Shown here piece after piece: positions 39,001 through 45,000 of a DNA stretch of 64,000 nt (position 1 is the first letter of the stretch; each line of letters starts with the position of its first letter). Made by a program: the position numbers. Origin of the DNA: Planctomycetales bacterium (GTDB taxonomy: Bacteria > 4484-113); NCBI GenBank assembly GCA_037441675.1, contig JBBIRS010000002.1, forward strand, positions 71,249-135,248, written 5' to 3'.

Positions 39001-42000
39001 GCCAACAGGAACTGGCCTTTCTAAATTTGCTGGGTTATTTCCAGATAGATTCTATGACGTTGGGATTTCAGAGGATTTTGCAGTTGTTTTAGCCTGTGGA
39101 TTAGCACTACAGGGTAAGAGACCAGTATGCGCGATTTATTCTACCTTTCTTCAGAGGGCTTTTGACCAACTCATTCACGATGTTGCCATACAGAATATTC
39201 CGGTTATTTTCGCGATAGACAGAGCGGGTATCGTAGGCGAGGATGGAGAAACTCATATGGGAATTTTTGATATTTCTTTCCTGCGAATGATACCTAACTT
39301 CACTATAATGGCGCCCAAGGACGAAAATGAACTAAGAAGTATGTTCTTCACTGCGGTAAGTAACTGCGATGGTCCTACTGCAATTAGATACCCAAAGGGT
39401 AAAGCGCTAGGCGTAGAAATAACGCCAAATCCCGATCCTATCCCCATAGGTTCATGGGATACTTTAAGGAGAGGGACAGACGTTGCAATTCTTGCAGTCG
39501 GTCCACTTAACTATGAAGCCTTAAGGGCGGCGGACATACTTGAGCGCTCTGGTATTAGCACTAGCGTAATTAACGCTAGATTTATTAAGCCAATGGATGA
39601 GAAACTTCTTCGGTACATTATCGCTAATTACCCACTTGTGGTGACATTGGAGGAGCATGTTGTGTCGGGAGGCTTTGGCGCTGGTGTTCTAGAGAATTGC
39701 GTGAGGGAAAAAGTTGAACCATTACCCCGCTTTGAACTTATCGGCCTGCCTGACAAGTTCATTGAGCAAGGTGACCAAGTGTCACTTAGGAAAAAGTATG
39801 GTCTTACCGCTGAGAGTATTTCATCTTTAATTCTTGAACGCCTGAAGTATAAAGAGAAGGATTTCAAGGTTGTATGAGAAGATACCAACCTGGACTTGGT
39901 TAGTAATTTTACTTGGTGTTTATCTCTTCCTTCAAATAGTATTTAACATACTCAAGACCTTCTGGGTTAAAGATGAAAGAAGAGCTCTGTTGATAGGTTT
40001 CATTTCATCAATAGTGTCATACCTTTGGCTAATCTCTGCAGTTCTTGTGATTACCCTCACATTGGGATATGAACTAAGGGCAGAGGTGCCTCAGTTTTAT
40101 CCGGATTTCCTCCTTATCATTATCGCATTCTTGATTTGTTTTGTAGTCAGCTTAGTTGATTTCTACGTTAGAATGGTGATTAGGCGAAAGCTAGGGCAGA
40201 CAGTTATGGTTGATGCCGAGGAGGGATACTTCCTTACGCCGACGAGCGTTGGCGCCTGGGAGCTAGCATTTTTCAACCTTGCAATATTAAAGCCATTCGC
40301 CTATGAGCTATTCGTTAGGGGTATCGCCCTTGTGGCGTTTCTAGAGCTTACTAACCAGTGGAACGTCTTTCTTTCCTACCTTTTCGCTCTTATCTTAACT
40401 AGTTTCGTTGAGTTTATGTTAAAACCTAGAGCTGATTCTTTCCTTCCCATTCTTATCATCTCAGCTATTTTAAGTATAGTTTTTCTGGCATCTTCCGGTG
40501 GCATCATCTCTACGATTATTGTGAGAGTCTCATCAAGCATCCTGTTATCCCTCTACTTTATGCATCTTGTATTTAAGTTAACAGCGGAAGGAAAAGATAC
40601 AGGGAAAGATGACAGGCAATGATATCTTGGTTTGCGGTATTGATGAAGCTGGGAGAGGCGCATTAGCGGGTCCTGTGGTTGCTTGTGCACTAGTATTACC
40701 TAAGCACTTTTTTGATCCAAGGGTAAAAGATTCAAAGCAACTTACACCTGACGAACGTACAAATCTAGCAAAATTCATAAAAGGAATTGCGGTTGACCTT
40801 GCTCTTGGTCTAGCTTCCTCCAAAGAGATTGAAAGATTAAACATTTTATTGGCTAGCCTATTGGCAATGAGACGTGCCTATAACAAGTTACGCGTTAAGC
40901 CTAAGGAGATAATCATTGATGGAACATTTTGCCCAGAAGGAATTCCTCACGGAATCTGCATCGCTAAAGCAGACAGCTTCATTCCCGTCGTAAGTGCTGC
41001 CTCTATAATAGCCAAGGTGGAACGGGATAAAATAATGACGAAACTGAGCAAGAAATTTCCTCAATACACATTTAACAAACACAAAGGCTATCCTACCAAG
41101 ATGCATTTATTTGAGCTCAAGGTTCATGGAGTTACGCCGATTCACCGCAAGACTTTCAAGCCTGTTAGCAAGACAATTCTGAGTGGAGAGTAATGGGAAC
41201 TGAAGCATTTCGTGATGCAGTTGTTCTAACCGTTTGTGGTGGGAATGGTGGTGATGGCGCGGTGCACTTTGCACGGTATAAGTACAAACCAAGAGGTGGA
41301 CCGGATGGCGGTGATGGGGGAAACGGAGGGGATGTTTATTTTAAGGGGGAGAACGCACTGGAATGCCTTGATTCGCTCTCGGAGGGGAAATGTTACAAAG
41401 CAGAAGATGGTGATAATGGTGGACCTGCAAAGAAGACCGGAAAACGTGGGAAGGATTTATTTATTTCAGTCCCAATTGGCACGCGGATTTACGATTATTC
41501 TAGCGGGTTGTTAATAGGGGAAGTTCTATCTGTTGATAATAGGTTGATTGTTGCCCGTGGAGGAATCGGCGGAACAGGAAACGCAAAACTTTCAACCGCA
41601 AGAACCCATACCCCAAGGTTTTCAAAACCGGGCACAAAAGGCGAAGAGCGTACATTACGACTCGTCTACCGGGCTTACGCTAGCGTGGCAATAGTTGAGG
41701 ATTTAGCATCAGATCTTTCTATTCTTAATTGTTTTCAGCCTGCCAGTGGAACAAGTCTTTACAGATTCTTTGAGAAGCCTAGAGTTTCTTTACTCACACT
41801 TAACTTTCATAAAACACGAACTGTTTATTTGCCTTTGAGCTTTAAGCTAAGCTCATTCAAAATAAGTTTTATAGAGCACATTTACTATGCCCAAAACTTA
41901 ATATTAAACGCCCTATTTAAGGAAGGGATGAAACGCATTGACGCTATATGGCCAGCCTTTATCGCAGAAATTCAAAAAATAAAGCATCCCTATTTGAAAA

Positions 42001-45000
42001 AAATTTTTGTTTTAGCAAGAGAGGACCCCGGTCTACCGTATGAAGTCAGTTATGTTGATCGTGAGAAAAAGAGCTTAATCTCTGTGGAAGTTCTAACGCT
42101 ACCTAAAGAAGCTCGCTCAGTTGATGCTTTTCAAAGTTGGATAAAAGATAAGTTGGCTGATACCCTTTTCCGAAATTGATGATTCGCTTGGAAATATAAC
42201 CTACTTTAATTTGAGTAGAATGTCCATTTATCTATCCATGAGAGCCCCTAAAATTACCGAAATTTAGCGAGAATATCGTACTGACTTTCAGCAAAGTATG
42301 ATGAGCGAATTAGCGGTCCACTGGCAACTCCTAAAAAGCCAAGGTCTTTTGCAATTTCAGCTAGCTCATTAAACTCTTCAGGGGATGCATAACGCACAAC
42401 CTCGTGCTTGCTTCGGTCGTTTAGTGGTTTTAAGTATTGTCCTATGGTGATTAGGTCAACCCCTGCTTCCCTTAAATCCATCATAACCTCAACCACTTCA
42501 TCCAATGTCTCTCCTAGCCCAAGCATCAGCCCGCTTTTGATAATAATTCTTGGAGATACGCTTAAATCATCCTTCGCCAGTAAACTAAAGAACGAATTGG
42601 GAGCTTCAACATTCGCACCCGTTTTGGTGGAGCTTTCGGGAGAGTTAACGCCTCCCTTACCATTACCCTCATTTGAAGACGAATCTCGAGCCATCTCTAC
42701 TGCCACTTTGTCTCTCCTAAAATCTGGGAATGGATGTTTAACTGCGAAATTCTTAGCGCGAGCAAGTTGTAATAAAGACCACTCATAATGGGCGCCAATT
42801 CTGACTTCACGGTAGAGCCTGGGAATAGTCTCAACATTGTGGTTGTAAACCTCTGGAAAAGCATTCAGCACTTTTAATAAAGCCTGCTCATCGCCCTTGA
42901 AATCCGGGGTTAAAACCTCAATCGTGGGAACATCTTCAAGTTTTCTTAACTCATCAATGCATGCCACAAAATGACTTGCGCCTCCATCAGGCAGGTCATC
43001 CCTATTTACGCTTGTAATAACAACATGTTTAAGTTTAAGTTTCTGGACAGACTGGGCGAGCAAAAGTGGTTCGTGGGGGTTTAAGCTACCCGGGGCGCCT
43101 GTTGCCACACCACAAAAACTGCATTTTCTCGTGCAAACATCACCCATCACCATAAAAGTTGCTGTTCCTCTACCCCAACATTCACCAATGTTAGGGCAGT
43201 TAGCTTCCTCACAAACAGTGTTGAGCCCTAAAAGGGCGGACAGCATTGTTTCCCGCACCCTAGGGTTTAGAGCCTTTACTCTTATCCAATTCGGACGTTT
43301 TTTAGGGTTTTCTATCACGTTTTTATCGCTAAATACGAGCCGATGTAAATTCGTCAGATTAAGTCGCCATTAATTATTTAGGATTAATTACCCGGCGTCT
43401 CATCAATTATGGTTGAATTTATTAACCTTAAAGCATTAGCCCAAAAAAACGATGGCGAGAGGCTAATCATCTCTTTTTAACTCACGACGGAATTTTATTG
43501 CTTCAGCTAACGTCACCTCATCCGCAAAATCAAGGTCAGCACCGGTTGGAAGACCGCGAGCGGGGCGCGTAAACTTTATGTTGAGAGACTTAAACTCCTC
43601 TGCTATCAGTGCGGAGGATGCCTCTCCCTCGAACGAAAAATCAAAACCCAGTAACACTTCTTTCACCTTGCCCTTCATAAGCCTTTCTCTAAGTTCTGCG
43701 CCACGAAGAGTATTCAAAAGTTTTCCTTTCAACGGATCAATGAGTCCACCAAGAACAAAGTACAGTCCACGGTACTCTCCCGTAGCTTCCAAAGGATAAA
43801 TGTCTAAAGGATTTTCCACTACACAAAGTTGTTTTGTATCTCTAGTTTTATCGGAACAAATAGAGCATAGCCCCCCGGAACTAAAACCGAAGCATTGGGG
43901 ACACTTCGCCACAGCATCCTTCAACCCAGCAATCTCCTGTCCTAGCCTTTCAAGGAATTCATCATCCTGCTCAAGCAAGTAAAGAGCAATCCTTTCCGCA
44001 GATCGAGGACCTAATCCCGGAAGAGCGCTAAGATCGCTTATCAGCCTTTTTAATCCATCGGGAAGCATCTTTTTAGGATTATTTTAGTTCTAAAGCAAAA
44101 TAGCAAAATGGGAAAAATAGGAATTGAGATTACCATGTAATCCAATTCGCAAACGAAAGGGTAATATGAAATTCATTTATATTTCCTTTTCCCATTCAGC
44201 AAGCTCAACTTCACCTTCCGCCTCAATTGGGGCTGAGAGCATATCTTTCTTCTCAGTGCTTACTTCTGCCTCGCCCTTTAGTGCAGAATCTAGGGCATGC
44301 CATGCACACACGGCACATTTAACTCTAGCATGTAGTTTCTTAACTCCCTCCAATGCAATCAGCTCTCCAAGAACCTTAATGTCTGGCTGATAATCTTTTT
44401 CAAGCAACATCTCCCTGAAACTATCCTTAAGCTTTAGGGCTTCCTGGCAAGTCTTTCCCTTTATCATCTGAGTCATAATACTTGCGGAAGCTTGACTTAT
44501 CGCGCAACCATTCCCTGCAAATTTAACATCTACTATTTTTTCATCTTCTACTTTTAGCCATAAGAAGACCTTATCCCCACAAAGAGGATTATCACATCTG
44601 CTCATATGCGTTGCGTCATCAAGCTCGCCCTTATTGCGAGGTTTTCTGTAGTGGTCTAGGATAACCTGAGTATATATATCACGTAGTAGAGACATAACCG
44701 AAAACTCTACGCGCCACCATCAAGGCATCTATCAGGGCATCTATTTCGTACTCTTGATTGTAGAGGTAAAAGCTAACCCGCACAGAAGAGGAAATACCAA
44801 GATAATCGTGAAGGGGCTCAGCGCAATGATGTCCCGCTCTTACCGCCACACCCTCTCTGTCAAGAATTGTTGAAATATCGTGTGGATGAATACCCTCAAT
44901 GGAAAAGCTAATGATACCACCACGCTTATCCGGAGGTGGGCCATAAATCCTTAGCCCTGGAACTGTCTTCAATCTCTCAAAACAGTAGTGAAGAAGCTCT

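Follow-up and report, generated by a model that had tools for sequence, protein, structure and literature searches.

Decades of work have left the purpose of Obg's GTP cycle open. Obg is essential in the bacteria in which it has been tested, its release from the 50S subunit is assumed to follow hydrolysis, and its binding of ppGpp has been proposed as a stress checkpoint. A bacterial phylum whose Obg lacks the G motifs provides a natural experiment on the need for a GTP switch in this protein. The gene considered here (orthologue P0001, 328 aa) lies at 41193..42179 of the window, i.e., the 64,000-nucleotide stretch of contig JBBIRS010000002.1 that was analysed; all features given below are on the + strand. 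Its phylum was represented by 24 genomes (62–96% complete, 1.5–4.1 Mb), two of which have no obg match.

The obg gene and its surroundings

The gene encodes an Obg domain followed by a motif-less domain with a predicted G fold. Pfam reports PF01018 as the sole domain of the 328-residue product (residues 8–158, 41214..41666; 158 bits against a cut-off of 27, E 1.6e-46), in line with the first-pass annotation, according to which the glycine-rich N-terminal Obg domain is kept. The variable C-terminal domain (OCT) is absent according to the same search. The full-length model TIGR02729 yields 165.9 bits, below its cut-off of 280.25, with an alignment that ends at residue 168, and it scored above cut-off in none of the 24 genomes.

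Immediately upstream is rnhB, encoding RNase HII (40609..41193), whose stop overlaps the obg ATG by one base. In family f1, rnhB is typically found upstream of obg, in the order ispA-dxs-membrane gene-rnhB-obg, while family f2 presents rpmA-obg-nadD and family f3 presents obg-nadD. The rpmA-obg-nadD placement claimed for the single-contig genome G016 is borne out by gene order and by NCBIfam, which confirmed rpmA and nadD in G016, G012 and G009, and rpmA in G010. In family f1 obg has been relocated: none follows rplU-rpmA in the genome studied here (G000). Promoter and terminator scans remained at chance level.

Loss of the G motifs

Column counts compare 39 distinct motif-less homologs with 118 canonical controls, and pattern counts compare 41 motif-less sequences with 119 controls. 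The loss of G1, G3 and G4 was claimed previously, and none of the 22 obg frames of the phylum contains GxxxxGK[ST] or DxPG, the lone [NT]KxD among them being a fortuitous TKLD within the G006 N domain. To this we add the loss of G2. Overall, the motif columns are retained in 0–4 of the 39 homologs, versus 117–118 of the 118 controls, and GxxxxGK[ST] matches 0/41 motif-less sequences versus 117/119 controls.

At the former P-loop (residues 169–175, EDLASDL, 41697..41717), GK[ST] is missing, the first glycine is replaced by Asp or Glu in 34/39 and the lysine column holds Lys in a single homolog of 39; the length of this region differs between families. The G2 threonine, the G3 aspartate and the G3 glycine are each found in 0/39 (controls: 118, 117 and 117 of 118). 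The former switch I (residues 189–197, 41757..41783) has instead a new aromatic residue at 192 (39/39) and a new Arg197 (37/39), and keeps Pro196 (39/39). At the former G3 (residues 212–215, YLPL, 41826..41837), the aspartate has become aromatic in 34/39, and the proline is kept in 38/39. The former G4 lies at about residues 275–278 (ARED, 42015..42026), where the alignment is less certain; no G4-like pattern was found in this region in any of the 39, while the strict pattern is present in 110/119 controls. His229 (41877..41879), the equivalent of E. coli H234, is invariant in all 39 homologs and all 118 controls.

We are therefore highly confident that there is no canonical GTP hydrolysis. 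Given that the binding residues are lost, neither binding nor hydrolysis of GTP or ppGpp by the known mechanism is expected, as far as sequence can tell. In E. coli ObgE, each of the single substitutions G166V, N283I and D286Y leaves no measurable nucleotide binding (PMC6982127). A non-canonical nucleotide or alarmone site, e.g., at the conserved basic-Pro-Arg stretch of residues 194–197, would allow regulation by a ligand to persist, and Arg197, the basic residues at 194–195 and the invariant His229 do adjoin the old nucleotide site. However, these basic residues could equally bind rRNA, and the P-loop has neither its glycine-lysine core nor a constant length, beginning mostly with an acidic residue; with an aromatic residue at the Mg-site aspartate and no G4-like pattern as well, we find such a site quite improbable.

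Copy number and distribution

As claimed previously, PF01018 yields a single match in each of 22 of the 24 genomes, G000 included; among genomes at least 90% complete, it does so in 13/13. The search for an additional Obg-like GTPase, earlier limited to eight genomes, was widened to all 24, and none was found: the second-best matches for the Obg G domain are HflX or FeoB-sized proteins with at most 67 bits (20 of them identified as HflX), whereas a genuine Obg G domain scores 224–226 bits. PF01926 does not match the G000 obg locus, and none of its seven matches at E <= 1e-9 in G016 falls at that locus. No split gene or separate G domain was found in the 24 genomes, and a weak search among candidates of 374–2000 aa found no longer fused forms.

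Twenty copies have intact frames, as the first-pass annotation reported, yet the copy it described as frameshifted (G008) is not: it is collinear with that of G007 up to the boundary of the N and G domains and is joined thereafter to unrelated DNA, and its C part was found in no frame and nowhere else in the 62%-complete assembly. Likewise, the length range reported (317–396 aa) needs adjusting: the stop-to-stop frames have 317–403 aa, while proteins counted from the conserved start have 316–369 aa (n = 20). The intact frames span three families, and the fourth has a full-length match, P0024.

An artefact, i.e., a decaying pseudogene or spare paralog alongside a canonical obg overlooked because assemblies are incomplete, could be argued from the completeness of the genomes, the two without a match and the broken G008 copy. 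Yet an Obg-type G domain occurs in none of the 24 genomes, single-contig G016 included, and the intact frames of three families and P0024 of the fourth, the purifying selection described below and the canonical gene order in family f2 leave this explanation close to refuted. The gene is almost certainly the sole Obg of these genomes and under selection.

In a quick N-domain tree, all 41 motif-less rows fall on one side of one branch (SH-aLRT 95). Restriction of the motif-less Obg to this phylum is unproven, since the divergent motif-less representatives P0021 and P0023 correspond to none of the genome copies.

Putative ribosome-contact loops of the N domain

In ObgE, it is the N domain that extends to the peptidyl-transferase centre (PMC4028186). 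In the phylum it is about 50% identical to that of the nearest canonical Obg proteins. In loop 1 (residues 26–35, 41268..41297), the columns of E. coli K27 and R25 are basic in 30/39 and 33/39, respectively, yet those of R24 and K31 in just 1/39 and 7/39, a clade-specific remodelling. In loop 3 (residues 130–143, 41580..41621), the columns of R136 and R139 are basic in 36/39 and 26/39. Loops 1 and 3 stay net basic (2.2 and 3.3, versus 2.7 and 2.8 in controls), while loop 2 is less so (1.3 versus 2.5). Mutation of loops 1 and 3 in E. coli nearly abolishes 50S binding, and weak 50S binding remains in apo ObgE (PMC4028186). In E. coli, switch I carries aromatics that stack on A1095/A1067; in the homologs these are only partly kept (Y189 column, 26/39; F191 column, aromatic in 9/39), in a stretch that is modelled as a helix.

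Fold and selection of the C half

The C half (residues 160–328, 41670..42176) is predicted to have an alpha/beta G fold. The earlier description of it as a decayed G fold and not a swapped domain agrees with the in-register alignment of its sequence with Obg G domains of known structure, with fold searches and with ESM Atlas matches, which are below 0.9 and serve as leads only. The full-protein model has a pLDDT of 86.1 (85.6 previously) and a Foldseek TMq of 0.69 to 7bl2 (0.71 previously); the C half modelled alone has a pLDDT of 88.6. When the C half was searched against 48,161 chains, the best nine matches were G domains (Z 8.0–9.1, rmsd 3.6–4.3, 134–148 residues aligned). Fold Z-scores are middling (8–10). 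Foldseek with the C half returned nothing at E <= 0.001, and hhalign, which matched the C part to canonical G domains only weakly (probability 0.6%, E 0.092), did not by itself link it to Obg. For the whole protein, the fold search matched 7o9k_G, a mitochondrial Obg homolog, with Z 18.9, rmsd 4.5 and 297 residues aligned. In a comparison confined to the motif-less protein, its model superposes more closely on ribosome-bound Obg chains (rmsd 4.1–5.9 Å) than on free crystal forms (9.9–10.3 Å), a candidate ribosome-bound pose.

The single copy is retained, as claimed previously, and its C half is under purifying selection, with dN/dS values of 0.07–0.23 in 7/8 measurable pairs, in most pairs near the N-half value. 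The identity of the pseudo-G domain between families is only 18–20%, versus 43–53% for the G domains of HflX and Der, so that selection may act mainly on the fold. This low identity would suit a protein in which the N domain alone works and the C half is a folded cap for its beta-barrel, without a docking role, as would the conserved C-half positions Tyr159, His229 and Tyr231/232, which from their place in the sequence probably face the N domain. The similar dN/dS of both halves, however, and the new invariant residues of switch I, which faces the ribosome in ObgE, make a mere cap very improbable.

Comparison with known systems

Canonical Obg/CgtA/ObgE (TIGR02729; PF01018+PF01926; 1LNZ, 1UDX, 5M04, 4CSU, 7BL2) is one of the nearest known systems. 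The phylum protein shares with it the N domain, the two-domain layout, the G fold and its register, the single copy and, in family f2, the rpmA-obg-nadD order, but differs in the absence of G1–G4 and of the OCT domain, the score below the TIGR02729 cut-off and the remodelled loop 1. Its best structural matches are the mitochondrial Obg homologs GTPBP5 and GTPBP10, placeholders on helix 89, which are considered GTPases that have the G motifs.

Tsr1, a pseudo-GTPase of the eukaryotic pre-40S particle, has Bms1 as its active paralog. Tsr1, too, takes part in ribosome assembly and has a G fold whose signatures are all disrupted; it is described as a gatekeeper that adopts an active-like pose and has to be removed by other factors (PMC4895721). 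It differs in being EF-Tu/SelB-like and acting on the small subunit, whereas here the sole Obg is dead and the large subunit would be the target.

Class i pseudoGTPases such as AAGAB have a motif-less G fold in common with the C half (PMC12490416), and AAGAB is among its fold matches (9dds, Z 7.4, rmsd 4.2, 135 aligned). Of the traits of this class, the phylum protein has disrupted signature motifs and, judging from middling Z-scores and in-register alignment, the G-domain fold. AAGAB is biochemically nucleotide-free and protein-binding (PMC12490416), while the phylum Obg is known from sequence and model. A non-ribosomal role (cell cycle, envelope or protein scaffolding), with the dead G domain as a protein-binding surface as in AAGAB, would accord with the new surfaces through which class i pseudoGTPases bind partners (PMC12490416), with the link between ObgE's essential function and the cell cycle (PMC6982127) and with the location of obg beside rnhB, dxs and ispA in family f1. 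Set against the still basic rRNA-binding loops, the ribosomal-protein operon retained in family f2 and the absence of the variable C-terminal domain, which has species-specific roles, such a role is quite improbable.

The statement that Obg is essential must be tempered for bacteria at large: obgE is present in 60% of CPR genomes versus >99% elsewhere (PMC12641178), i.e., it is absent from about 40% of the former, so 50S assembly is possible without an Obg GTPase in CPR/Patescibacteria. That study scores presence and absence, whereas in this phylum, with genomes of 1.5–4.1 Mb, the gene persists under selection and only the switch is lost. Surveys of this kind would either miss such genes or count them as normal GTPases. 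We found no description of a motif-less Obg in the literature searched, which lay mostly outside subscription journals.

Proposed role in 50S maturation

Our reading is that the protein is probably a nucleotide-free placeholder in 50S maturation, a bacterial parallel to Tsr1. A vertically inherited, single-copy Obg would have become a pseudo-GTPase once, in the ancestor of the phylum, and would still bind the 50S at a late stage of its assembly. Its N domain would extend basic loops into the peptidyl-transferase centre, where they would mimic A-site tRNA and hold helix 89 during maturation. The second domain, with acidic residues at the old P-loop and aromatics filling the old Mg and phosphate positions, would be a rigid body docked at the GTPase-associated centre, keeping off the 30S subunit and translation factors. 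With no hydrolysis step, release would occur by eviction or competition; the route is a guess. Low affinity and steric eviction could suffice once helix 89 and uL16/bL36 settle finally, or an intact GTPase of the same site (HflX, EF-G, IF2 or LepA) could compete. With no sensing of GTP or ppGpp, the stress-checkpoint role of ObgE would be lost, even though Rel is kept.

In E. coli, alleles with N283I or D286Y allow growth as the sole copy, although they were plasmid-induced and in a K268I background, and the P-loop allele G166V does not (PMC6982127). In a 2026 preprint, the action of Obg on stalled ribosomes is reported to require GTP hydrolysis. The placeholder role is favoured by the basic charge of loops 1 and 3, the weak 50S binding of apo ObgE, the candidate ribosome-bound pose, the retained RsfS and the ordinary rRNA described below; the remodelled loop 1, the less basic loop 2, the partly kept switch-I aromatics, the low identity of the pseudo-G domain and the preprint weigh against it. 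The complete account, in which the 50S subunits of the whole phylum are matured by a switch-less, ppGpp-uncoupled Obg that keeps a rigid ribosome-bound pose and is displaced when helix 89 matures or by another GTPase, is offered tentatively, as possible rather than probable.

If this is true, pseudo-GTPases, of which the cited examples are eukaryotic, would gain a bacterial member that acts in ribosome assembly. The approximately 40 natural, selected, motif-less orthologs are reagents with which a structural placeholder role can be separated from the switch: should the phylum protein be able to take over from ObgE in E. coli or B. subtilis, the core job of Obg would be structural, and GTP hydrolysis a removable regulatory layer that bacteria may have lost several times.

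Other GTPases and ribosomal components

A general decay of GTPases in the phylum can be rejected, since HflX of the same genomes keeps G1, G3 and G4 in 20/20 cases and domain 1 of Der keeps G1 in 18/18; G000 also has intact Der and RbgA-like proteins. A lost stringent response is likewise rejected as an explanation of the Obg decay, given that 23/24 genomes have a long Rel. In the same lineage, Era and EngB were not seen, and YchF is drifting.

Intact Der and RbgA-like proteins would be expected if assembly had been left to Der and RbgA and the 50S-bound Obg had taken a new job, e.g., as a constitutive anti-association, storage or rescue factor, and the clade-specific changes in loop 1 point the same way. 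Nevertheless, a blocker of subunit joining without an off-switch should be costly, and obg remains within housekeeping operons, which leaves a changed job unlikely.

The maturation placeholder proposed above would contact helix 89, whose base, in 12 of the 14 phylum genomes matched, carries a G-C pair in place of the A-U of the Rfam consensus (E. coli 2459/2493). Co-evolution of helix 89 with the pseudo-Obg is rejected, because A-U persists in two phylum genomes (G002 and G023), while the G-C variant occurs in at least 120 metagenome contigs only 69–86% identical to the phylum 23S; the variant is thus neither required nor specific. The sarcin-ricin loop and the rRNA of the GTPase centre are ordinary, and RsfS, a partner of ObgE on the pre-50S particle, is kept in all five genomes tested.

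The obg gene and its copies across the phylum

The obg reading frame (window 41193-42179, + strand) encodes a 328-residue protein, P0001, and its ATG shares one base with the rnhB stop codon. The Obg N domain (PF01018) at residues 8-158 is the sole Pfam match, and the match to the NCBIfam Obg models stops at residue 168 with scores far under the cut-offs. In the genome holding the window (G000), this frame gives the one PF01018 match, and, as the first-pass annotation had stated, none of the 13 matches to the GTPase G domain (PF01926) lies there. From their motifs, we take the matched frames to be Der (two domains), FeoB, MnmE, HflX, an RbgA-like protein, IF2, EF-Tu, SelB, LepA, YchF, MeaB and EF-G. 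The same annotation's claim for the single-contig genome G016 also stands: its seven PF01926 matches at E <= 1e-9, which by size and position correspond to Der (two), MnmE, FeoB, HflX, RbgA and IF2, spare the obg locus.

The motif-less Obg is real, phylum-wide and under selection. Its description as a single-copy protein stripped of GTPase motifs was reproduced: PF01018 has a single match in 22 of the 24 genomes, including all 13 that are at least 90% complete (the two genomes with no match are 78% and 84% complete), and neither GxxxxGK[ST] nor DxPG occurs in any of the 20 full-length frames. In the fourth family, represented by G023, obg is truncated by a contig end; given that P0024, compared by eye, has an N-terminal part letter-for-letter the same as the G023 copy, and is full length and motif-less, this family agrees with the motif loss. 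The reported lack of an extra Obg-like GTPase was borne out when the search was widened from 8 to all 24 genomes: there is no second Obg, nothing in them scores above the TIGR02729 cut-off, matches outside obg reach at most 67 bits, against 224-226 bits for two genuine Obg G domains alone, and the 20 second hits fetched read as HflX. The copy of genome G008, previously called frameshifted, is instead collinear with that of G007 up to the domain boundary (locus L067, about 5978, G008:C10), where unrelated DNA and genes follow, and its C part was not found in the whole G008 assembly; the junction is probably a chimeric assembly join.

Residue anatomy of the motif-less proteins

Forty-one motif-less proteins (39 distinct) were aligned with 118 of 119 canonical Obgs, one fragment being left out, and E. 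coli residue numbers were taken from the alignment to 4CSU. The set comprises 20 proteins from the genomes, 14 of the 25 hits of a C-half profile (4 duplicates and 7 fragments being left out) and 7 of 9 further proteins. G166, K172 and S173 are present in all 118 controls and in 4, 1 and 1 of the 39 motif-less proteins, respectively, with Asp or Glu replacing G166 in 34. T193 (118/118 controls), D213 and G216 (117/118 each) are absent from all 39, D213 giving way to an aromatic residue in 34, and no G4-like pattern occurs in any of the 39. Unchanged are P196 (39/39), P215 (38/39) and H234 (39/39), while an aromatic residue at T192 (39/39) and Arg at 197 (37/39) are new. Given that all motifs are lost, and that in E. 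coli ObgE each of G166V, N283I and D286Y alone already abolishes measurable nucleotide binding (PMC6982127), canonical nucleotide binding is, judged from sequence, very unlikely.

Within the N domain, K27, R136 and R139 remain basic in 30, 36 and 26 of the 39 proteins, R24 and K31 in 1 and 7; a net basic charge persists in loops 1 and 3 and is weaker in loop 2. In a quick N-domain tree built from the 41 motif-less rows and 40 controls, a branch with SH-aLRT 95 separates the motif-less proteins from the rest, which fits a single origin, within the limits set by long branches and by controls picked for likeness to P0001. Two deep motif-less representatives, P0021 and P0023, match no genome copy; they may belong to further families of the phylum or to a sister lineage.

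Origin of the C-terminal half

The earlier reading of the C half as a decayed G fold is upheld by a 20-protein profile, whose alignment to 1UDX, 1LNZ, 5M04 and 4CSU stays in register across their G domains. Searched alone against 1.84 billion representatives, the C-half profile retrieved 25 proteins, every one of the motif-less type; when it is compared, profile to profile, with seven canonical G domains, the alignment keeps the register without reaching significance. The AlphaFold2 model (pLDDT 86.1 for the whole protein, 88.6 for the C half) aligns over its full length with Obg structures, with Z 18.9, rmsd 4.5 and 297 aligned residues for 7o9k_G, and Z 16.6, rmsd 4.1 and 295 aligned for 7bl2. 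Among 48,161 chains, the best nine for the modeled C half are G domains (Z 8.0-9.1), a receiver domain ties at 8.0, and this predicted fold score is by itself middling. ESM features, as a lead only, link the C half to Obg-type G domains (0.84). Taken together, profile alignment, fold searches and ESM speak for an origin of the C half in the Obg G domain. In the orthologs of G010 (L014) and G011 (L016), an acidic stretch of about 45 residues is inserted in switch II, immediately behind the former G3.

Gene order and selection

The rpmA-obg-nadD order noted earlier for G016 is kept in its family, f2, and obg-nadD is kept in f3. In f1, the family of G000, obg has been relocated 3' of ispA-dxs-membrane gene-rnhB, and is absent behind the G000 rplU-rpmA pair. 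The membrane protein kept between dxs and rnhB in f1 (window 39870-40622, +; 250 residues) has no Pfam match, and a predicted lipoprotein with a cohesin domain (36151-36966, +) is kept upstream of ispA-dxs in that family. Lipoyl synthase LipA (42254-43318, -; 354 residues) is matched as two separate stretches and carries, after about residue 192, roughly 60-70 inserted residues of low complexity.

Nei-Gojobori dN/dS of the C half, computed for ten pairs, is 0.07-0.23 in seven, saturated in two and 0.58 in one, whose N half gives 0.56. The C half is 46-47% identical inside families and 18-20% across them, where the N half is 40-44% identical and, in the same genomes, the G domains of HflX and Der are 43-47% and 50-53% identical, with G1 intact in 20/20 and 18/18. 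Constraint on the Obg C half is relaxed, not gone, and the decay is specific to Obg.

Proposed mechanism and comparison with known systems

In E. coli, the Obg domain is an A-site tRNA mimic that prevents subunit joining and needs the basic residues of its loops 1 and 3; apo ObgE binds the 50S subunit weakly, and ppGpp lifts occupancy over five-fold (PMC4028186). According to a 2026 preprint, the G domain sits on H43/H44/H95, where Y189 and F191 stack on A1095 and A1067; the trigger it proposes for hydrolysis and release is the maturation of H89 (10.64898/2026.02.15.706057). The motif-less protein would work like Obg minus its switch: it would retain the placeholder step, bind 50S weakly and independently of nucleotide, hold its second domain rigid, and leave by steric eviction or through a competing GTPase. 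We lean towards the placeholder reading. The P0001 model superposes on ribosome-bound chains at rmsd 4.1-5.9 A and on free crystal forms at 9.9-10.3 A; its closer fit to the former, compared without a canonical Obg control, is in keeping with a placeholder. In favour of this reading, E. coli alleles N283I or D286Y as sole copy support growth; against it, G166V does not, and the viable alleles were plasmid-induced in a K268I background (PMC6982127). Also against it, Obg activity on stalled ribosomes depends on hydrolysis, according to a preprint (10.64898/2026.05.13.724932), and retention of the switch-I aromatics is partial.

Because it lacks the GTPase hallmarks of its family, the protein is classed as an Obg ortholog that has become a pseudo-GTPase rather than among the Obg GTPases. 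It would resemble Tsr1, which acts on the pre-40S particle and has all five of its G signatures disrupted (PMC4895721), and its sequence and model make it a candidate class i pseudoGTPase, a class that rests on biochemistry (PMC12490416). Since obgE is kept in more than 99% of non-CPR genomes and in only 60% of CPR genomes (PMC12641178), life without an Obg GTPase was already known; no report of a retained, selected, switch-less Obg was found in the literature searched. PMC13278734 describes a ready assay for such a protein.

Other GTPases, the stringent response and rRNA

Of the 24 genomes, 23 encode a long Rel, and RsfS is present in all five tested. No Era-like match spans its model in the 24 genomes; five genomes give no Era-type KH hit, and none of five tested, single-contig G016 included, has EngB/YsxC above cut-off. 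RsgA passes its cut-off in 3 of 5 genomes, both f1 genomes tested lacking it, and BipA in one of five (G016). YchF occurs in 21 of 24 genomes (G000:C11:18173-19255 in G000). The phylum's single YchF (loci L032-L051) is also drifting: among 20 full-length copies, G1 and G3 are each intact in 17 and the YPFxT (G2) stretch in none. The G1 and G3 patterns are lost as well in three of four f3 copies, and in G008 there is an additional C-terminal fragment of YchF, likewise broken off from any full copy (L053).

Of five genomes searched, four have an exact sarcin-ricin loop, and H43/H44 of G000 look ordinary. The pair at the base of 23S helix 89, A-U in the consensus, is G-C in 12 of 14 genomes (G000:C3:249791-249848; L076, L078, L079); being missing in two of the 14 and widespread in distant metagenome lineages, the G-C pair is not specific enough to stand as co-evolution with Obg. 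The 23S fragment of G002 (G002:C3:487-544) has a helix 89 unlike that of every other f1 genome, and the fragment may be foreign to its bin.
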